A stretch of DNA of 64,000 bases from an uncultured Candidatus Rokubacteria bacterium. Its GTDB lineage: Bacteria; Methylomirabilota; Methylomirabilia; Rokubacteriales; CSP1-6. Below, piece after piece: positions 48,594-60,011 of the stretch. The notes beneath the pieces were generated by a model. The model saw only the letters and a list, made by a program, of their open reading frames with translations, was not told where the DNA came from and made no database searches. Made by a program: the position numbers and the translations under genes. The DNA lies in contig CAWBMV010000037.1 of NCBI GenBank assembly GCA_963789955.1, positions 224,001 to 288,000 on the forward strand, given 5' to 3'. Within the stretch, counting starts at the first letter, position 1, and each line of letters begins with the position of its first letter.

Positions 48594-50336
48594 ATGAGCG
48601 TGACCAGCGTGGCCCAGAAGTGGGTATCCGAGGCCGCCGGCCTGACGCAACCGTCGCGCGTGGTCTGGTGTGACGGGTCCAAGGCCGAGTACGACTCCCT
48701 GATCGAGGCCATGCTGCAGGACGGCACGCTCCTGCCGTTGAACCCGAAGACGTATCCGAACTGCTACCTGCACCGCAGCCACCCCTCGGACGTCGCGCGC
48801 ACGGAGCAGCTCACGTTCATCTGCTCGCGCGAGAAGGATTCCGCCGGTCCCACCAACAACTGGATCTCGCCGATCGAGGCGAAGTCGACCGCCGGGGCCT
48901 TGTTCCGGGGCAGCATGCGCGGCCGGACGATGTGGGTCATTCCGTATCTCATGGGCCCGGCCGGCTCGCCGATGAGCCGAACCGGCCTGATGGTCACCGA
49001 TAGCGCCTACGTCGTGGCGAGCATGCACCTGATGACTCGCGTGGGGCAGGTCGCGATCCAGCACATGCGGCGCGACGACGACTTCATCGCCGGGCTCCAC
49101 TCGATGGGTGACCTCTCGCCCGAGCGACGCCTGATCCTGCACTTCCCTGAAGAAAAGCTCATCTGGAGCGTGGGATCCGGCTACGGCGGCAACGCGCTGC
49201 TCGGCAAGAAATGCCACGCGCTGCGGATCGCGTCCTGGCAGGCCCGCCAGGAGGGCTGGCTCGCGGAGCACATGCTGATCATCGGCGTCGAAGATCCCGA
49301 GGGTCGGATCACGTATCTGGCGGCCGCGATGCCGAGCGCCTCGGGTAAGACGAATCTCGCGATGGCGGTCTCGCAGCTTCCGGGCTGGCGCGTGTGGACG
49401 GTCGGCGACGACATCGCGTGGATGTGGGTCGACGCGAACGGCCAGCTGCGCGCCGTCAACCCCGAGCGCGGCTTCTTCGGCGTCGCGCCCAACACGAGCC
49501 CCAAGACGAACCCGAACGCGACCGCGATGGTCCGCTCGAACACGATCTTCACCAACGTCGCGCTGACGCCGTCGCAGGAGCCGTGGTGGGAAGGGCTCAC
49601 GCCGACGGCGCCGGCCGGGCTCACCGACTGGCAGGGACGGCCGTGGCAGCCGGGCGCCGGCGCGGCGGCTCACCCGAACTCGCGCTTCACGGTGCTCGCC
49701 GAGCAATGTCCGTCGATCGCGCCGAACTGGGAAGAGCCGCAGGGCGTGCCGATCTCCGGCGTCATCTTCGGCTCGCGCCGCACCGGCGTGATCCCGCTGG
49801 TGTTCGAGGCATTCGACTGGTCGCACGGCGTGTTCCTGGGCTCGGCCATGAGCACCGAGACGACCGCCGCGATCACCGGCAAGGTCGGCGTCGTACGCCG
49901 CGATCCGATGGCGATGATCCCGTTCTGCGGCTACAACATGGGCGACTACTTCGCCCACTGGCTCGCGACCGGGCCGCGCCTCACCAACCCGCCGCGCATC
50001 TTCCGGGTGAACTGGTTCCGCCGCGACGCCGAGGGCCGCTTCCTGTGGCCGGGCTACGGCGAGAACGTGCGCGTGCTCAAGTGGATGGTCGAGCGAATCC
50101 GCGGCACGGGTCGGGCGGACGAGACGCCGATCGGCTGGGTTCCGGCGGCGGGCGCGCTCGACACCGGCGGGCTCGAGGTCGACCCCGCGCAGCTCCGTGA
50201 GGCGCTGAAGTGCGACGCCGGAGAGTGGCTGCAGGCCCTCGAGGAGCTCGACGAGTTCTACAAGCAGTTCGGCCCGCGGCTTCCGCAGCCGATCGCCGAC
50301 ACGCTCGCGACGACGCGCCGCCGCTTCGGCGCCTGA
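48594..50336 (+). CDS. pckG: Phosphoenolpyruvate carboxykinase (GTP)
   Basis: GSGYGGNALLGKKCHALR, PSASGKTNLAM, VGDDIAW and AAHPNSRF; upstream TTGACG-N18-GACAAT. Confidence 0.95.
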   Translation: MSVTSVAQKWVSEAAGLTQPSRVVWCDGSKAEYDSLIEAMLQDGTLLPLNPKTYPNCYLHRSHPSDVARTEQLTFICSREKDSAGPTNNWISPIEAKSTAGALFRGSMRGRTMWVIPYLMGPAGSPMSRTGLMVTDSAYVVASMHLMTRVGQVAIQHMRRDDDFIAGLHSMGDLSPERRLILHFPEEKLIWSVGSGYGGNALLGKKCHALRIASWQARQEGWLAEHMLIIGVEDPEGRITYLAAAMPSASGKTNLAMAVSQLPGWRVWTVGDDIAWMWVDANGQLRAVNPERGFFGVAPNTSPKTNPNATAMVRSNTIFTNVALTPSQEPWWEGLTPTAPAGLTDWQGRPWQPGAGAAAHPNSRFTVLAEQCPSIAPNWEEPQGVPISGVIFGSRRTGVIPLVFEAFDWSHGVFLGSAMSTETTAAITGKVGVVRRDPMAMIPFCGYNMGDYFAHWLATGPRLTNPPRIFRVNWFRRDAEGRFLWPGYGENVRVLKWMVERIRGTGRADETPIGWVPAAGALDTGGLEVDPAQLREALKCDAGEWLQALEELDEFYKQFGPRLPQPIADTLATTRRRFGA

Positions 50337-50354
50337 GCGCGACGTCCGCTCGGT

Positions 50355-53148
50355 CTACGACGCGCGCCGGTTGCCGCCGGCGACGAGCTGGATCACCCGC
50401 CGCACTTCGCCGCGATCGAAGGGCTTGCTCAGCCCCGGCACTCCGGTCTGCTCGAGGAACGTCTGGATCTCCGCGCTCAGGACGTCGCCGGTCATGAGCA
50501 CGAAGCGCCGGCAGAGGTCCGGAAGCCGGCGCTCGAGCGCGCGATAGAGCCCGGGACCGTCGAGGTACGGCATCCGCACGTCGCTGAGGATCAAATCGTA
50601 CGACGCCCGCCGGAGCTGCTCGAGCGCCTGTGTCCCATCCGCCACCGTGTCGACCGTGTGGTGATCGGCGCCGAGCATCTCGCCGAGCAGCTGGGTCACC
50701 AGGCGCTCGTCGTCGACGACGAGGATGCGCTTGCCCTTCACGACCGGCGGCGCGTCCGTCGCGCGCTTCCCGGAGGTCACCGGGGGCGCCACCACCGGGA
50801 GCTCCACCCGGAAGATCGCGCCGTGTCCCGCCTCGCTCACGAGCGACAGCGTGCCGCCGTGACCTTCGACGATCCCGTGGCAGAGCGAGAGACCGAGACC
50901 CGTCCCCTGCCCGACGGGCTTCGTCGTGAAGAACGGCTCGAAGATGCGGTCGCGGATCTCGGCGGAGATCCCGGGGCCGGTGTCCTCGACGTCGAGCGAG
51001 ACGCGGCCGCGCACCGCGTCGGCCCGCGTGCGCAGGGTCAGCCGGCGCGGCTCCGGCGCCTTGCGCAGCTCGTCGCGGGCATTGGTGATCAAGTTCACCA
51101 CGACCTGGTGGAGCTGATGCGGGTCGGCCCACAGCACCGGGAGACCGTCGGTCAGATCGAGCCCGACCTCGATGCGGTCGACGCGCAGGTGATACGCGAG
51201 CAGCTCGGCCGCGTCGCGCGCGATGTCGTTCAAGCGCACGAGCTGCCGCTCCGGCGGATGGCGCCGCGCGAGCGCCAGGAAGTTGCGCACGATCGAGGCG
51301 CAGCGATCGGCCGCGTGCGCGATGGCCTCCGCGCGCGTCGCCGACGGCGTACCCGCCAGCTCCTGACGGAGCAAGTTCGCGTAGCCGGTCACCGCGGTCA
51401 GCGGATTGTTCAGCTCGTGTGCGACCCCGGCGAGGACCGTGCCCATCGTCGCGAGCTTCTCGGTCTGGTACAGCGCCTCGCGCTGACGGCGAAGCTCGGC
51501 GTCGATTCGCTTGCGCTCGGTCATGTCGCGCACGATCGCCGAAAGGAACTCGATGGATCCGTCGGCGCCGCGATGGGCGACGGCGACCACCGACACCGGC
51601 ACCTCGCGCCCGTCGCGCGCCAGGAGCACCGCCTCGCCCGTCCAGAGACCGTCCCGGATCAGCGCCGGCCAGATCTCGTCGTGGACGACCGGACGCAGCC
51701 GTTCCGGCGCCAGGCCCGCGATCGGATGCCCGAGCGCGTCGTGCGGCCGCGAGGCCGAGCAGGGCTTGGCCCGCGGCGTTGAGGTATTGCAGGCGCCCTG
51801 ACAGATCGGCGATCGCCACCAGATCGGTCGTGGCTTCGAGGATCGCGGTGAGCCGCTCGCGCGCCTCGAGCTCGAGCCGCAGGCGGCGGTAGAGGCGCGC
51901 GTTCTCGACGGCGACGGCGGCGTGGTCGGCCAGCGCCAGCAGCAGCCGCTCCTCGATCGTCGTGAACTCGCGCGGCCGCGGGCTGCCGACGGCCAGCACG
52001 GCGACCAGCCCTTCGGGGCCGACGAACGACGCGGATAGCGTCTGGCCGGCCGGGCCGAAGACCGCGGTGAGATCCGGGCCGCCGGCCTGAGCCAGGAGGT
52101 GGCGCAGCGAGATCTTCCGCTCGTGCGCGAGCCGCTCGGCGAGGTTCGGCGTCACCTGGAACCGGAGCGGCTCGGCCGCGCGGTCCTCGATGCCTTCCCA
52201 CGCCACCGGCCACAGCACGCCGGTCTCGAAGAGCCACAGCACGCTCGCCTCCGCCTTGATCAGCTCGCGGGCCGCGTTCACGACCCGGCGCAGCACCTCG
52301 TCGAGGTCCTTGGTCGTGACGAGCGACTTCGCCAGATCGTTGAGGACGGTGAGACCGTCCTTCTCGTCGGCCAGCCGGCGGTGCGCGAGGACGTTCTCGA
52401 TCGTCGACGGCAGCTTGGCGAGATACCCCTCGCGCTTGATCAGGTAGTCCGCGACGCCGAGCTTGAACGCCTGGACCGCCGAGTCCTCGTCGCCTTCCCC
52501 GGCGACCATGACGACCGGGATGCGGATGCCGACGGCCTGCAGCTCCTTGAGCACCTCGATCCCCGAGAGATCCGGCATCCGGTTGTCGAGCAGCAGGACG
52601 TCGTAGTGAACGGTCTTCAGCTTGGCGAGCGCGTCCCGGGCGCGGGTGACCGTCTCGACGCGCGCGCGCCGGTCGTGCTCCTCGAAGGCGCGCAACGTCA
52701 ACGCCATGTCCTCCGGATGATGCTCGGCATAGAGCACACGGATCGGCGCGTGCCGGCGCTCGGTCGCGGTGCGAAACCAGCGGTACGCGCTCTCGAGCAC
52801 GACCGGCAAGGTGGCCAGATACTCCGGACGCTTCACCAGATAGTCGGCGGCTCCGGCCTTGAGCAGCCGGACCGTGGTGTCGGCGTCGCCCGCGGCGGTC
52901 ACGAGGACCACCGGCACTTCGAGCCCGCGCGACTTGACGGCGTCCAGCAGATCGAGACCGGTCCCGTCGGGGAGGCGATAGTCCGCGAGCATCACATCCA
53001 TGTCGCCGATCGTGACGCGCTCGACCGCCTCGGCCACCGTCTCCACGACGGTGAGCTTGATGTGGGGCGCGTGACGGACGAGGTGACGGTGGGTCGCCTC
53101 TTGATCGGCGGGATCGCCTTCGACGTAGAGCACGCGGATGGAGTCCAT
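50355..53148 (-). CDS. Cytoplasmic hybrid histidine kinase REC-REC-GAF-PAS-HisKA-HATPase-REC, frameshift near 51750
   Basis: Two N-terminal receivers ([16 protein letters not shown]), [23 protein letters not shown] and a C-terminal receiver. Confidence 0.9.
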
Positions 53149-53888: not shown

Positions 53889-55418
53889 TCAGACGGGGTA
53901 GACGCCGTTCCGGCGAGACGGGAACTCGTGCACTTTGGACTGCGCGAACGCCAGGCGCTTGATCAGCTCGTCGCGCAGGGCGCCGCCCGGCACGATGTCG
54001 TCGATCAGCATCTCGGAGGCGAGCTTGTAGGTGTCGACGTCCTTCACGTACTCGTCGCGCTTCTGCTTGACCCAGGCCGCGCGCTCGCTCTCGGGCAGCT
54101 CCATGATCTTGTTGTAGTAGACCGCGTTCACCGCGGGCTCCGGACCCATGATCGCGATCTGCCCCTGCGGCAGCGCGATCGACGCGTCGGGCTCGAAGGC
54201 CGGGCCGCACATCGCGTAGAGCCCGGCGCCGTAGCACTTGCGCACGATCACCGAGATCTTCGGCACCGTCGCCTGCGCGGTCGCGAAGACCATCTTGGCG
54301 CCGTGGCGGATGATCCCCTGCTGCTCGACCTTGGTGCCGACCATGAAGCCGGCGATGTCGGCGAGGTAGACGAGCGGGAGATTGAACGCGTTGCAGAGCC
54401 AGATGAAGCGCGCCGCCTTGTCGGACGAGTCGACCATCAGCACGCCGCCCTTCACCTTCGGCTGGTTGGCGACGATACCGACCGCGCGGCCGCCCAGACG
54501 CGCGAAGCCGACGATGACCTCCTGCGCGAAGAGCCGCTTGATCTCGAACCAGGAGCCGGCGTCGATCAGACGATCGATGACCTCGTACATGTCGAAGTAC
54601 TTCCGCTGGTCGTACGGGACGATCTCATCGACGGAGCGGCCCGGCTTCGGCTCGGCGGCCGGCGCCATCGCCGGCACATCGCGGTACGACTGCGGCATGT
54701 AGGTCAGATAGCGGCGGGCCAGCGCGATCGCGTCCTCGTCCGAGGCGGCGAGCATGTCGCCGCAACCGGAGACCTTGCAGTGCATGAGCGCGCCGCCGAG
54801 CTCCTCCAGGGTCGTCTTCTCGCCGATGGCCATCTCGACCATGCGCGGGCTCCCGACGTAGAGAGACGCCTTGCCCTCCACCATGATCACCACGTCGGTC
54901 AGCGCGGGCAGATAGGCCGAGCCCGCCGGCGACGGCCCGAACAGGATGCAGACCTGGGGCACGACACCGGAGAGCTGCACCTCGTTGTAGAAGATGCGTC
55001 CGGCGTGGAATCGCCCGGGAAAGATCTTGATCTGCTCGGAGATGCGCCCGCCGGCGGCGTCCACCATATAGATGAGGGGCAGCCGCAGCCGCGCGGCCTT
55101 CTCCTGGATTCGAATGATCTTCTGGATGGTCTTCTCGCCCCACGAGCCGGCCTTGACCGTGTAGTCGTTGGCCATGACGCACACGGGACGCCCGCCCACC
55201 ATGCCGACGCCGGTGACGACGCCGTCGGCCGGTGTGTCGGGCTCGTTGGACCGCGCGAAGAGCCAGTCCTCCTGGAACTCGGAGCCCGGATCGAGAAGGA
55301 GCTTGAGCCGATCGCGGACGAAGAGCTTGCCTTCCTCGCGGAGCTTGTCGCGGTACTTCGTGTGACCCTGCTCGATCCGCGCGCGCTCCTGGAAGTAGCG
55401 TTCTTCGCCCGAGCTCAC
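53889..55418 (-). CDS. Acyl-CoA carboxylase carboxyltransferase (beta) subunit
   Basis: PADGVVTG, VDAAGGRI, GIVANQP, GIIRHGAKMV and RKCYGAG motifs. Confidence 0.92.
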   Translation of the reverse strand: MSSGEERYFQERARIEQGHTKYRDKLREEGKLFVRDRLKLLLDPGSEFQEDWLFARSNEPDTPADGVVTGVGMVGGRPVCVMANDYTVKAGSWGEKTIQKIIRIQEKAARLRLPLIYMVDAAGGRISEQIKIFPGRFHAGRIFYNEVQLSGVVPQVCILFGPSPAGSAYLPALTDVVIMVEGKASLYVGSPRMVEMAIGEKTTLEELGGALMHCKVSGCGDMLAASDEDAIALARRYLTYMPQSYRDVPAMAPAAEPKPGRSVDEIVPYDQRKYFDMYEVIDRLIDAGSWFEIKRLFAQEVIVGFARLGGRAVGIVANQPKVKGGVLMVDSSDKAARFIWLCNAFNLPLVYLADIAGFMVGTKVEQQGIIRHGAKMVFATAQATVPKISVIVRKCYGAGLYAMCGPAFEPDASIALPQGQIAIMGPEPAVNAVYYNKIMELPESERAAWVKQKRDEYVKDVDTYKLASEMLIDDIVPGGALRDELIKRLAFAQSKVHEFPSRRNGVYPV

Positions 55419-55431
55419 CGTCGCCTGCCGA

Positions 55432-56455
55432 TCACGGAGTGGGGTTGGTCCACAGGATGATGATGAGGGTGCCGGAGCCGTGCTTGGGACCGCCGATCAC
55501 CGCCGGATTGCCCGATTGGGCCTGAATGTTCGTCGACAGCTCGGTCATGCTGCCGCGCAGGAGCCGCATGTTGAACGTCACCGCGGCGCCACGCACGCTC
55601 TGCGGCGTGACCTCCAGCCGCCGATCGCCCGGCACCGGCCACTTCTGGGTCGTTCCCACCGGGACCTCGGCGCGGTAGCGCGCGAGTGAGGTGTAGTTGT
55701 TGTAGCGGAAGAGCTGGCGGAGCTTCGGCAGAAACGCCTCGAGGCGCTCGTCGGGCGGCTCCGGCGCCTTGGTCGACGCGTTCGGCGGCGGGCCGTCGCT
55801 GGCCAGGACGATTCGCGTGCCGAACCGGACAATGGTCTGCGCCTGCGCGATCGCGGCCAGCGCAAGGGTCAGCATCACGGCCAGGATCAGCAACCAGGAG
55901 CGGTCCGAGGGCGTCCCGTAGACGCCGGCGGGCGTTGTGCAGCCGCGACATCACGGTCCCCATCGGTATGTTCAGCACCTCCGCGATCTCGCGGTACGAG
56001 AGACCCTCGAGATCACTCAACATGATAATGGCCCGATGCGGCTCGGACAAAGTGGCGAGCGCGCGGCCGATTCGCTCGCGCTCCTCGACCTGCTTGGCGT
56101 GGGTGTCGGGCGCGGTCCCCTGATCGACCAGGACCCGGTCCCAGTCCTGCTCGTCGACGCGCTCGGTACCGAACGCGCGCCCGCGCGCCGCGTGCTGTCG
56201 CGCGCGGTCCCGCGCGACGTTCATCACGATCCGAAAGAGCCAGGTGTAGAACGCGGAGTCGCCCCGGAACGACGGCAGCGCCTGAAAGGCGCGGATGAAG
56301 GCATCCTGGGCGACGTCCCAGGCCTCTTCCGGGTCGCGAAGGACGTTGTAGGCGAGTCGATAGACGCGCTGCCGGTACTTCTCGACCAGGGGCTCGAACG
56401 CCGCGAGATCGCCGGCACGGCATCGCTCGATCAGGGCTGCTTCGTCCGTGTCCAC
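55432..56455 (-). CDS. ECF sigma factor, probably continuous with a TM helix and exported domain via a 1-nt frameshift near 55894
   Basis: DVAQDAFIRAF, FYTWLFRIVMN and LSYREIAEVLNIPMGTVMSRLHNAR; removing one G gives ...DALGPLLLLILAVMLTLALAAIAQAQ... Confidence 0.8.
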
Positions 56456-56511
56456 CGGGATTCACTCGCTCGCCCCCCGTCGTCGTTAGACGACGAGATG
56501 GCGGTCGCGAT

Positions 56512-56965
56512 TCACCGTCGCCGAGTCGTTCGGCGCGAATCCGCCGTGAGAGCGTCGAGGCCCAGCAGATAGCTCTGTGGGCCGAATCCCACGATCTGAC
56601 CGCGCGCAACGGCGGCGATCACCGAGTGGCGCCGGAACTCCTCGCGCCCGTGCACGTTCGACAGGTGGACCTCCACGACCGGCAGCTTGATCGCGGCCAC
56701 CGCGTCGCGCAGGGCGATCGAGTAGTGCGTGAACGCGCCCGGGTTGAAGACGACGCCGGCGAACCGCTCACCCTGGGCGGCCTGGAGCCAGTCGACGAGC
56801 TGTCCCTCGTGATTCGACTGCCGGCACTCGACCGAGTGACCGCGGCGGCGGGCGTGCTCGCGAAGCATACGATCGACTTCGGCGAGCGTGATCGCGACCG
56901 TAGACTCCCGGCTCGCGGGTGCCCAGGAGATTCAGGTTCGGGCCGTGCAGGATCAGGATCTTCAC
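56512..56965 (-). CDS. aroQ: Type II 3-dehydroquinate dehydratase, frameshift near 56890
   Basis: [39 protein letters not shown] and EVHLSNV..REEFR motifs. Confidence 0.93.
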
Positions 56966-57006
56966 GACAGCGCGGGAGCTTAGCATCAGCGGGCTGTCCG
57001 GGCGGA

Positions 57007-57519
57007 TCAGAAGAACGTGGCGGGGTCTCGAATCTTGTCGCGGAGCAGAGGGGGCACGCTGGGCTCCTTCCACCACGCGTCCCAAAGCTCATCGCCCGTG
57101 ACTTGCCCCATCGTGATGTTGAGCATCACCATCGTCCAGATGAACTTGTTCGGCGACAGCTTGACGCCGTTCAGGACCCGGTCGACGACGCCGTCGACGA
57201 GGACGGGTCGACCGACGTTGTGCAGGTGCTGCTGGAACGCAATGATCCAGTGCGCGGTGATGTCACCGTAGACTCCGTCGACCTTCATCGTCGGAAACTT
57301 CTTGGGTGGGTGGAACGGGTTTTTGAACTTCGTCGGATTCTGGGCGACGATCTTGAGGAAATGCTGGACCAGCATCACGTCGTCCGTCTGGTTCCTGGAT
57401 CCACGATGGTTCCCCGGAACGTTCGGCGCACCAACGAAGCCGTCCGTGTTGTAGAACAGATTGTCCCGGTGCTTCGGCAGCTTGTCCACGAAGTCTTTCG
57501 CAACGTCTCGGAAGGCCAT
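57007..57519 (-). CDS. Hypothetical protein with a peptidoglycan-binding (PG_binding_1-like) motif
   Basis: [21 protein letters not shown]...[18 protein letters not shown]...VDGVV. Confidence 0.7.
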
Positions 57520-57569
57520 CGGTCCTCCTCCGTTCTGTCGATCAAGCGGATTTTCATCGAGAAAGGCGA

Positions 57570-58316: not shown

Positions 58317-60011
58317 ATGGGCATCACAGGGCTTTTCCGCAGGCTCGGTGAGATCCTGGTTCGCGAGCGGCTGACCACCCCCGACGTCGTGGAGCAGGCG
58401 CTCGTCCGCGCCCGCACGACGGGCGAACGGGTCGGCGAGGCGCTCGTGTCCCTGGGCGCCGTGAAGGACGACGACGTGCTCCGAGCCCTCGCGCAGCAGC
58501 AGAACCTCGCGTATCTCAACCGCGATGAGCTGCCGGCGCCCCTGCCGATCGTCAAGAATCTCTCGCCGAAGTATCTGCGCCAGTACGCGGTGTGCCCGGT
58601 GAGCGTCGAAGGCAACGTGCTGACCATCGCGACGGCCGATCCGCTGAATCCGATCATCGTCGACGATCTCGCGCAGTCGACCGGCCTCACCGTGAAGGTC
58701 TGCGTCTCGTCGGCCGACGCGATCGTCGAGGCGATCGACCGGACCTATGACGGCGTGGCGACACCGCTGCAGCGCATCGTCGAGGGCATGGACGACGATC
58801 GCGGCGGCGAGGGCGACGAGGACGTCAACCAGCTGCGCGACATGGCGTTCGAGGCGCCGGTCGTCCGGCTCGTGAATCTGCTCATCGAGAACGCCATCAC
58901 GTCCGAGGCCTCCGACATCCACATCGAGCCGTTCGAGGACACGCTGCGCATCCGGTACCGCATCGACGGCATGCTCTTCGACCAGGAGGCGCCGCCGCGG
59001 CGCCTGCAGGCCGCGGTGACCTCGCGCGTGAAGCTGATGGCCGAGATGAACATCGCGGAGCGGCGGCTCCCCCAGGACGGCCGCATCCGGGTCACGCTCC
59101 ACAATCGCCGCGTCGACATCCGCACCTCGACGATTCCGACGGTGCACGGCGAGTCGATCGTCATGCGGCTGCTCGACCGGCAGAGCGTCTTCCTGGCCCT
59201 CGAGAAGCTCGGCTTCTCGCCGGGGATGCTCCCCCGCTTCGAAGGGTTGATCAAGCGGCCCCACGGCATCGTCCTGGTCACGGGACCGACCGGATCGGGC
59301 AAGACCACGACGCTCTACGGCGCGCTCGACAAGATCAACTCGCCGGACCGCAAGATCATCACCGTCGAGGACCCGGTCGAGTACCAGCTGAAGGGCGTCA
59401 ACCAGATCGCGGTCAAGCCGAAGATCGGTCTGACCTTCGCCACCGGGCTCCGGCACATCGTCCGCCAGGACCCCGACGTGATCCTGATCGGCGAGATCCG
59501 CGACCTCGAGACGGCGGAGATCGCGATCCAGGCCTCGCTCACCGGTCACCTCGTCTTCTCGACCCTGCACACCAACGACGCGCCGGGCGCGATCACGCGG
59601 CTCCAGGACATGGGCGTCGAGCCCTACCTGGTGGCCTCCGTGCTCGAAGGCGTGCTCGCGCAGCGGCTCGTCCGGCGGATCTGCGCGACGTGCCGCGTCT
59701 CCGACACGCCGTCGCCGGCCGACCTGGGCGCCCTCGGCATCGCCGGCGCCGACGGCACGCGCCTCTATCGCGGCCGCGGCTGCGACGAGTGTCGCGGCAC
59801 CGGCTACCGAGGCCGGACCGGGATCTACGAGCTGTTCCCGATCACGGAAGAGGCGCGCAGCCTCATCCTCCGCCGAGCGCCGACCCGCGACATCCGCCGT
59901 GTCGCGATGGAAGCCGGCATGGTCACGTTGCGGCTCGACGGCTGGGCCAAGGCGTGCGCCGGGGTCACCACCGTCGAGGAAGTGCTCCGAGTCACGCAGG
60001 AAGACGCCTAG
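58317..60011 (+). CDS. gspE: Type II secretion ATPase
   Basis: N-terminal RLGEIL (MshEN-like), ASDIHIEP, GPTGSGKTTTL, LSTLHTN-like FSTLHTND and two CxxC motifs. Confidence 0.93.
   Translation: MGITGLFRRLGEILVRERLTTPDVVEQALVRARTTGERVGEALVSLGAVKDDDVLRALAQQQNLAYLNRDELPAPLPIVKNLSPKYLRQYAVCPVSVEGNVLTIATADPLNPIIVDDLAQSTGLTVKVCVSSADAIVEAIDRTYDGVATPLQRIVEGMDDDRGGEGDEDVNQLRDMAFEAPVVRLVNLLIENAITSEASDIHIEPFEDTLRIRYRIDGMLFDQEAPPRRLQAAVTSRVKLMAEMNIAERRLPQDGRIRVTLHNRRVDIRTSTIPTVHGESIVMRLLDRQSVFLALEKLGFSPGMLPRFEGLIKRPHGIVLVTGPTGSGKTTTLYGALDKINSPDRKIITVEDPVEYQLKGVNQIAVKPKIGLTFATGLRHIVRQDPDVILIGEIRDLETAEIAIQASLTGHLVFSTLHTNDAPGAITRLQDMGVEPYLVASVLEGVLAQRLVRRICATCRVSDTPSPADLGALGIAGADGTRLYRGRGCDECRGTGYRGRTGIYELFPITEEARSLILRRAPTRDIRRVAMEAGMVTLRLDGWAKACAGVTTVEEVLRVTQEDA

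Follow-up and report, generated by a model that had tools for sequence, protein, structure and literature searches.

Extracytoplasmic function (ECF) sigma factors make up the largest class of bacterial devices for signalling from the envelope to the genes, and to our knowledge nearly all those known are held by an anti-sigma domain. That an ECF sigma factor can carry a membrane-spanning regulatory extension is already established: the proven case is the sigma/anti-sigma fusion IutY (ECF243) of Pseudomonas putida, which Prc and RseP release; in the part of the source considered here it is also the only one characterised experimentally, with ECF48, ECF52, and ECF53 predicted to work like it (PMC8999054). 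Here we describe a gene in a 64,000-nucleotide stretch of DNA from an uncultured Candidatus Rokubacteria bacterium (contig CAWBMV010000037.1, positions 224,001 to 288,000; hereafter the window) whose product combines a stress-type ECF sigma factor with a signal-peptide-like membrane segment, attached to it directly, and an exported domain, domain X. This fusion is real and conserved order-wide, and we consider it probable, at roughly 0.6, that this one-piece ECF sigma factor is held inactive through its own membrane anchor until proteolysis releases it. What is new relative to the systems already known is that there is no anti-sigma domain, that the anchor has the appearance of a retained signal peptide, that the exported domain belongs to a new family tied to ECF cassettes, and that the lineage is a different one.

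The Rokubacterial fusion resembles IutY in that one polypeptide contains the sigma factor, a single membrane span, and a periplasmic part, and in that a separate anti-sigma gene is lacking. However, IutY has a FecR-like anti-sigma domain between sigma and the membrane where the Rokubacterial protein has none, and it serves FecI-type iron signalling with an outer-membrane transducer, whereas here a sigmaE/SigW-like core is combined with an unrelated, unnamed periplasmic domain; the regulated intramembrane proteolysis that activates IutY is, for the Rokubacterial protein, only proposed. ECF48, ECF52 (SCO4117), and ECF53 of Actinobacteria are likewise extended at the C-terminus by one or two membrane helices and a domain outside, and likewise lack a nearby anti-sigma gene (Casas-Pastor 2021; PMC8999054). 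The proline-rich outside stretch of SCO4117 is a trait shared with the order-level relatives of the Rokubacterial protein. In these groups, as described, the helix is preceded by a zinc-finger anti-sigma domain and the outside part holds carbohydrate-binding domains, and their range is restricted to Actinobacteria, whereas in the Methylomirabilota protein the sigma-4 helix directly abuts the membrane segment. Three other groups with extensions are unlike the present fusion: ECF57, with about two helices and WD40 repeats; ECF263, with five or seven helices; and ECF220, a Polyangiaceae group of variable extensions (Casas-Pastor 2021; PMC8999054). The names Rokubacteria and NC10 have no mention in the main text and the part of the supplement of Casas-Pastor 2021 that were covered. 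No published description of the fused family was found in the literature searched, and with the ECF supplement covered in part, the family may yet fall into an existing ECF group.

Signal peptidase serves as the site-1 protease of RsiV and RsiP (PMC4183432, PMC6066255, PMC8844934, each considered in part). In the RsiV/sigmaV and RsiP/sigmaP systems of Bacillota, a single-pass protein carries a signal-peptidase site at the outer end of its helix, which is used only upon a cue and is followed by a site-2 cut; we propose the same logic here, with the difference that RsiV and RsiP act as anti-sigma proteins distinct from the sigma factor they bind, whereas here the cleavable-type anchor is on the sigma factor itself. 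The E. coli RpoE-RseA-RseB and Pseudomonas AlgU-MucA-MucB systems are among those with the nearest solved sigma cores, and the present fusion lacks an RseA-like partner. Finally, in Bacillus subtilis the sigma precursor pro-sigmaK is itself the substrate of a site-2-type intramembrane protease, SpoIVFB (PMC6242693, PMC12632252, in the parts considered), as proposed for the Rokubacterial protein. However, pro-sigmaK is a group-3 sigma factor with a short, membrane-associated pro-peptide at its N-terminus, rather than a C-terminal transmembrane anchor and an exported domain.

In the window, the gene is distributed over two reading frames on the minus strand. The sigma frame (56455..55415, 346 aa, GTG start) reads ...RRRLRDALGPLLVADPGRD... 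and has no stop near its natural end; past ...RRRLRDALGPLL it turns into arginine-rich nonsense. The second frame, one base off, is open from about 55955, has its first start codon, a TTG, at 55893, and reads MLILAVMLTLALAAIAQAQTIVRFG... to a TGA at 55434..55432, for a product of 153 aa. All the elements listed by an initial annotation made from the sequence of the window are present on this strand: an ECF sigma core that runs on without a stop, and a second frame with a hydrophobic segment, an A-x-A motif, and a beta-rich domain. Reading by eye, we found no Shine-Dalgarno-like purine-rich stretch before the TTG at 55893, which bears out the further statement that the second open reading frame (ORF) lacks a ribosome-binding site. 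The two ORFs, 56455..55415 and 55893..55432, should be read as one gene for a protein of ~340 aa (Table 1).

Residues 1-187 of the sigma frame match Pfam Sigma70_r2 (5.7e-19, 68.1 bits), Sigma70_r4_2 (1.4e-17, 63.5 bits), and Sigma70_ECF (47.5 bits), and score 122.3 bits with the ECF superfamily model of NCBIfam, TIGR02937, for which the cut-off is 42.9. The core is an ECF (group 4) sigma-70 factor that consists of the sigma-2 and sigma-4 regions only. It aligns end to end with the RpoE model (positions 8-190 of 190), and because the alignment reaches the end of that model, the core stops exactly at ...GPLL, where the frame breaks. The RpoE/AlgU equivalog itself (TIGR02939, ECF02-like) gives 152.8 bits, under its cut-off of 236.15, and all other equivalog models are also under theirs. 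The closest solved chains are sigma factors of the sigmaE/SigW type: residues 6-186 align with residues 11-191 of the 194 in E. coli sigmaE (1or7_A; 2.5e-31), and the best-scoring chain is 6in7_B, recorded only as 'RNA polymerase sigma-H factor', which we take to be AlgU. The 153-aa product of the second frame has no match in Pfam (E<=1) or NCBIfam, so that across the fused protein these two databases show sigma domains only and no anti-sigma domain.

The fusion is not peculiar to the window. Domain X is present in 56 of the 61 related genomes searched, the five without a match being 68-88% complete, and in 49 of the 56 the match lies within a stop-free open frame of >=333 aa. The seven exceptions are the window's own genome (G000), three genomes with one stop inside the match (G013, G021, G030), and three with shorter open frames (G019, G054, G055). 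We read 29 loci that span the ranks from genus to order within Methylomirabilota/Rokubacteria, each of which encodes one protein of 330-420 aa. Sigma core, hydrophobic segment, and domain lie in one frame of 340-403 codons in all 19 of the best genus- and family-level loci, and the same single-frame plan holds in all ten further loci picked from order-level matches. Relatives at the order level (about 400-440 aa) follow this plan with proline-rich inserts after the membrane segment and after strand 1 of the domain. Database searches with the C-terminal part gave 511 matches, and the best 120 of these all contain sigma-70 Pfam domains; among the matches listed, most are 337-343 aa long, the named sources are Rokubacteria, Methylomirabilota, or NC10, and the only annotations are 'sigma-70 family RNA polymerase sigma factor' or 'hypothetical'. 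The initial annotation had suggested a search for full-length homologues of the frame-corrected protein, and these are such homologues. The arrangement it had named as the counter-case, in which region 4 is followed by a stop, the exported protein is encoded separately, and an anti-sigma gene is present, occurs only in distant Desulfobacterales and not in the related loci; it therefore points to the origin of the fusion (see below) and does not refute it.

The two frames in the window are separated by a single extra base at 55891, and the one-base shift suspected from the sequence proves to be a private insertion. On the minus strand the junction reads CTGGTTGCTGATC in the window and CTGGTTCTGATC in the closest relative, L002 (94% DNA identity), and the base is absent from all 29 relatives read, including L002, L005, and L009. 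Contigs from four soil or rhizosphere runs, belonging to four separate studies, cover 55300-56600, and all four omit one base exactly at 55891; they are ~98.8% identical to the window (15 substitutions in 1301 bases). The upstream gene aroQ contains two further single-base insertions relative to L002, at about 56892 and 56971. Since relatives and near-identical contigs lack the base and aroQ has insertions of the same kind, the extra base is most likely an assembly error, although the contigs come from similar, not identical, populations and not from the source sample. The alternative is a real frameshift in this strain: the gene would then be a copy that is decaying or has lost its regulation, giving a free sigma factor with a nonsense tail of ~160 aa and, perhaps, an exported domain with a start of its own. 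The assembled window does carry the base, and the TTG sits at the right place in the second frame, but no ribosome-binding site precedes it, the base is missing from four of four near-identical contigs and 29 of 29 relatives, and further frame irregularities occur both in the flanking aroQ and, as a frame switch at ~51.78 kb, in another gene; we regard a real split as very unlikely. A conserved internal start for a separate exported protein was considered and rejected, as the GTG and ATG codons in the membrane segment of the window are not kept in relatives. The other gene concerned is a long one at 50077-53148 (minus strand), by eye response-regulator/GAF/histidine-kinase-like, which also turns into arginine-rich nonsense; the track of GC content at third codon positions changes frame within it, probably through another one-base assembly error.

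The membrane segment follows the DNA-binding part of the sigma factor with hardly any spacer. Across the 34 aligned proteins, the sigma-4 recognition helix is never more than L-G-P plus one or two residues away from the hydrophobic stretch, whose uncharged core has a median length of 22 residues (range 17-25, n=34). At its outer end, position -3 is A, T, V, S, or L and position -1 is A or G in all 34, small residues as in regulators of the RsiV/RsiP type, and the next residue is Q or E; the same motif occurs in 118 of 120 database proteins, and the other two lack the sigma-4 landmark. In the window it is A-Q-A at 55840-55848, with the predicted cut between 55840 and 55839, before Q. Order-level relatives keep the motif even though a variable proline-rich insert, and not strand 1, comes next, which points to selection on the motif as such and not on the fold alone. 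An AlphaFold2 (AF2) model of the intact L002 orthologue (34-sequence alignment; mean predicted local distance difference test score (pLDDT) 75.7, predicted template modelling score (pTM) 0.39) has one helix over residues 165-205, and the recognition helix is thus predicted to be continuous with the membrane segment. The segment had been called signal-peptide-like from its hydrophobic helix and A-x-A site, a description strengthened by the conserved -3/-1 motif and by stand-alone homologues of the domain, which begin with a signal peptide. The anchor looks like a retained or captured signal peptide.

The exported part was described at the outset as a beta-rich domain of ~135 aa, and an AF2 model of the domain alone (window sequence, 23-sequence alignment) agrees with this: its 134 residues (pLDDT 86.7, pTM 0.78) are predicted to form eight strands and one helix, in the order long strand 1, disordered loop, helix, and seven more strands. 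The loop after strand 1 (residues 20-25, pLDDT <50) is the only low-confidence part. A profile of the domain finds 627 cluster representatives at E<=1e-3, 142 of them at E<=1e-10, and many of these are proteins of ~150 aa with the domain behind an N-terminal stretch of 25-50 residues. All 17 stand-alone homologues that we read open with ordinary signal peptides, and none of 25 examined contains a Pfam family; some short database entries are truncated calls of fusions, such as P0125, whose cluster holds a 337-aa sigma fusion. In a protein atlas, the closest clusters are unnamed hypothetical proteins (score 0.95), with Myxococcota or Verrucomicrobiota commonest among the few members that have a record. 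The domain marks an unnamed exported family tied to ECF signalling in two phyla.

The fold of domain X is weakly suggested by modelling to be secretin-core-like, which is unconfirmed. In a VIA-align structure search, ranks 1-11 are all secretins (GspD, InvG, RcpA, pIV, XcpQ, ExeD, PilQ, PulD, and others), with Z scores of 8.1-6.2, 100-106 of 134 residues aligned, root-mean-square deviations of 4.0-5.0, and 12-23% identity, where best Z scores of 7-8 are common without a true match. Foldseek against the PDB returned nothing at E<=1e-3, with the secretin XcpQ as its top row (E 4.2e-3, TM 0.34). At the sequence level, Pfam Secretin (PF00263) is found in none of 21 stand-alone members at E<=10, a profile search of PDB sequences gave no secretin and only weak 'pilus assembly protein' rows (E 0.3-1), which we disregarded, and hhalign against a Rokubacterial mini-secretin family aligned only 25-26 columns around a '...G.P.viGG' motif, with probabilities of 49% and 12.5%. 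A two-copy complex prediction of the domain (score 0.01, mark 0.42) gives no answer either way on self-association. Similarity to RseB was not detectable.

Secretin genes also occur elsewhere in this genome. A full-size one lies ~5 kb past the end of the window and ~13 kb from the sigma fusion (G000:C37:292939-293481), and one is similarly distant on the same contig in at least 11 relatives from two families (G001, G004, G005, G006, G007, G013, G014, G015, G041, G044, G046); a gene that by eye resembles a GspE/PilB-type ATPase (58317-60011) lies between fusion and secretin gene. This proximity may be only conserved gene order and is noted since the fused domain is secretin-like. Genomes of the genus further encode one exported 'mini-secretin' each, of ~217 aa (L061:276-929, which is G000:C1:639275-639928, and L062-L069), which score above the cut-off of Pfam Secretin but cover just its positions 16/17-128.

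One stand-alone subfamily of domain X has close relatives in metagenome contigs and in Desulfobacterales genomes, including that of the cultured Desulfonema magnum 4be13. In ten of the eleven loci examined, the domain gene lies in a cassette with genes for an ECF sigma factor and a zinc-finger anti-sigma factor, in the order sigma/domain/anti-sigma in eight and sigma/anti-sigma/domain in two (L042, L044); the eleventh, L037, is cut at the contig start and retains domain and anti-sigma only. The sigma and zf-HC2 assignments are from Pfam in L034 and L036, and elsewhere rest on inspection by eye, guided by the H-x3-C-x2-C motif and by resemblance to these two loci. The exported protein thus sits in the cassette where RseB/MucB would sit. 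The simplest history suggested by these arrangements is that the fusion arose from the first two genes of a sigma/exported-protein/anti-sigma cassette, with loss of the third, in which case the signal peptide would have exchanged its n-region for the basic end of sigma-4. Over 187 residues, the cassette sigma and the fused sigma core share 36% identity; orthology of the two is at most tentative, as the best match of the cassette sigma in the Rokubacterial genome is another ECF sigma factor (2.2e-28), the fused one giving 4.4e-26. Cassettes L034, L036, L040, and L042-L045 also keep a small exported protein that is rich in G-x-x-x-G (about 115-145 aa, no Pfam match) and a class III cytochrome c, together in some with an OmpA-family glycine-zipper lipoprotein and DUF3108.

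As the initial annotation had stated, no anti-sigma gene adjoins the fused gene, whose neighbours are aroQ and an acyl-CoA carboxyltransferase gene. The latter begins 13 nt past the stop of the sigma gene in the window, and occupies the position directly downstream, where an RseA/MucA-type anti-sigma gene would be found, in five of seven representative loci as well (L002, L016, L020, L021, L026); no such anti-sigma gene is there. Among 30 neighbour proteins from the seven loci, Pfam shows no anti-sigma family. The anti-sigma factor of Desulfonema has no match at E<=0.01 in the window's genome, which is 87% complete.

Upstream of the gene is a candidate promoter, TGAATC-N16-CGTCTAA, with the consensus TGAAT(C/G)-N16-(C/G)GTCT(A/G)A across loci. 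A strict form, TGAAT-N17/18-GTCT[AG]A, precedes the gene in 27 of 29 related loci and matches nowhere else in their 125 kb, and in the 6.77-Mb genome its single match is the one at 56486-56514; the reversed control pattern gave none. The TGA also serves aroQ as its stop codon, so that the conservation at -35 owes something to this constraint, whereas the -10 part lies in non-coding DNA. The -10 element GTCT(A/G)A resembles the TCTGA/TCTAA of sigmaE/AlgU-type promoters. The motif presumably works as the promoter of the fused sigma gene, and offers a testable handle on its targets. A relaxed pattern, GAATS-N15-17-SGTCTRA, gives three sites in the genome and one in the control, too few to define a regulon. 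The two additional sites (L073, G000:C6:343583-343611; L074, G000:C34:79302-79329) each lie 30-50 nt before a gene start, and the genes behind them, one MOSC-like by eye and one for a ~90-aa membrane protein, are possible regulon members.

How might such a protein be controlled? The sigma core would lie in the cytoplasm and domain X in the periplasm (N-in/C-out), and sigma-4, pinned within a few residues of the membrane, would be kept from binding to RNA polymerase and to the -35 element. A first cut would become possible when a periplasmic cue acts on domain X, with A-x-A|Q as the likeliest site and signal peptidase I as the enzyme, on the pattern of RsiV and RsiP, and the proline-rich loops as a less likely site, after which an RseP-type site-2 protease would cut within the membrane, and the freed sigma would drive its own promoter and a small regulon in an autoregulatory fashion. 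Release by signal peptidase and then site-2 protease is plausible, and the genome encodes both an M50 site-2 protease (238.6 bits) and a signal peptidase I (174.7 bits). The initial annotation had proposed a one-component membrane-tethered sigma factor released in this way. Its architecture stands (the fusion, the lack of an anti-sigma, the signal-peptide-like segment), but one result weighs against easy cleavage: the hydrophobic cores of the fusions are longer than those of the stand-alone signal peptides (median 17, range 12-21, n=21), and a longer core favours an uncleaved signal anchor over efficient cleavage, though it would also fit a restrained one. As to the tether, the continuous helix is predicted with moderate confidence (pLDDT 70-84 there, in a full model of low pTM), and the conserved G-P between recognition helix and hydrophobic stretch could be a hinge. 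Should tethering alone keep the sigma factor off and signal-peptide processing turn it on, no simpler transmembrane sigma switch would be known so far, and the protein would make a compact part for synthetic biology. The family is present throughout an order of an abundant, uncultured soil phylum, with sigma joined directly to its anchor and neither an anti-sigma domain nor a partner gene.

The site of the first cut is one point on which readings diverge. Periplasmic proteases of the DegS/DegP, Prc/CtpA, or PrsW kind are used by systems of the sigmaE/AlgU/SigW type, the nearest relatives of this sigma factor, and one of them, or SEA-like autoproteolysis, might cut in the variable proline-rich loops on either side of strand 1, towards the membrane segment or towards helix 1, with the site-2 protease acting afterwards. 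Autoproteolysis of SEAL domains in RsgI anti-sigma factors provides a precedent (PMC10556640, in the part considered). The post-strand-1 loop is the one place where the domain model loses confidence, and order-level relatives expand it by tens of proline-rich residues; these loops, however, are conserved in neither sequence nor length, unlike A-x-A|Q, and none of the seven loci scanned has a linked protease gene, so that we consider a loop cut rather unlikely. The same lack of a dedicated protease gene nearby would suit a sigma factor that is never cut at all and is active while anchored, in the manner of ToxR, CadC, or TcpP, recruiting RNA polymerase and promoters to the membrane while the domain tunes it by conformation or clustering. 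With its median of 22 residues, the hydrophobic core has the length that a stable anchor needs, and the nearly invariant G, mostly followed by P, could give the hinge such a protein would need. Yet only about 4-5 residues lie between recognition helix and hydrophobic stretch, whereas membrane-bound activators of the ToxR class have long cytoplasmic linkers; we know of no sigma factor that acts while anchored; and A-x-A|Q would have no reason to be conserved in 34 of 34 proteins. IutY, moreover, needs proteolysis (PMC8999054). Activity in the anchored state is accordingly a less probable reading still.

At the other extreme, processing might be constitutive: signal peptidase would always free the domain, the site-2 protease would clear the remnant, and sigma output would report synthesis and export capacity and not a periplasmic ligand. 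Spent signal peptides are a known substrate of site-2 proteases, the membrane segment occupies the homologous position of the cleaved signal peptides in stand-alone members, and the conserved -3/-1 motif, the autoregulatory-looking promoter, and the presence of both proteases in the genome all fit. But efficient cleavage is made less likely by the longer hydrophobic core, a sigma factor both always released and autoregulated would run away unless otherwise restrained, and the occurrence of the same domain beside a true anti-sigma factor in Desulfobacterales suggests a regulatory, not a passive, role; unregulated processing seems to us about as improbable as activity in the anchored state. Cue-dependent release of a tethered sigma remains our preferred explanation. 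A bolder reading we put forward tentatively, as possible though well short of even odds. With the anchor as a captured signal peptide, the sigma factor could be regarded as the cytoplasmic 'n-region' of a secretory precursor that was fused from the first two genes of a sigma/exported-protein/anti-sigma cassette of the kind still present in Desulfobacterales, such that export of the secretin-like periplasmic part, the signal-peptidase cut, and site-2 clearance of the spent signal peptide would together free it. If so, transcription would be wired directly to secretion and signal-peptide processing with no anti-sigma, a route of ECF control so far undescribed.

Table 1. Positions in the window of the fused sigma gene, its parts, and its immediate surroundings
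Feature	Coordinates	Strand	Basis or remark
ECF sigma core (sigma-2 + sigma-4), 187 aa	55894..56455	-	Pfam, NCBIfam, solved chains
Signal-peptide-like membrane segment (...GPLL/LILAVMLTLALAAIAQA)	55840..55905	-	Follows sigma-4 recognition helix directly
Exported C-terminal domain X (unnamed family), 134 aa	55435..55836	-	Stop codon 55432-55434
Single extra base splitting the gene into two frames	55891..55891	.	C on plus strand
ECF-type promoter-like motif TGAATC-N16-CGTCTAA	56486..56514	-	Its TGA is the aroQ stop codon
Acyl-CoA carboxyltransferase, downstream neighbour	53889..55418	-	Pfam Carboxyl_trans 1.7e-152
aroQ (type II 3-dehydroquinate dehydratase), upstream neighbour	56512..57000	-	Two ORF frames carry pieces, broken by one-base insertions

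The upstream neighbour was identified as aroQ in the window and in L002 by eye and by alignment to relatives, and Pfam, which was run on the loci of five relatives, places DHquinase_II at the same position in L016, L020, L021, L023, and L026. Other neighbours across the seven representative loci include a ZIP transporter, parts of ABC transporters, and a PIN/RHH pair. Beyond aroQ, ~570 bp at 56995-57566 are missing in L002 and L009, where <=25 bp separate aroQ from the ZIP transporter gene. With a GC content of 0.58 against ~0.69 around it and a 173-aa ORF on the minus strand (57007-57528) that has no Pfam match, this segment looks like a recent insertion of a small gene.

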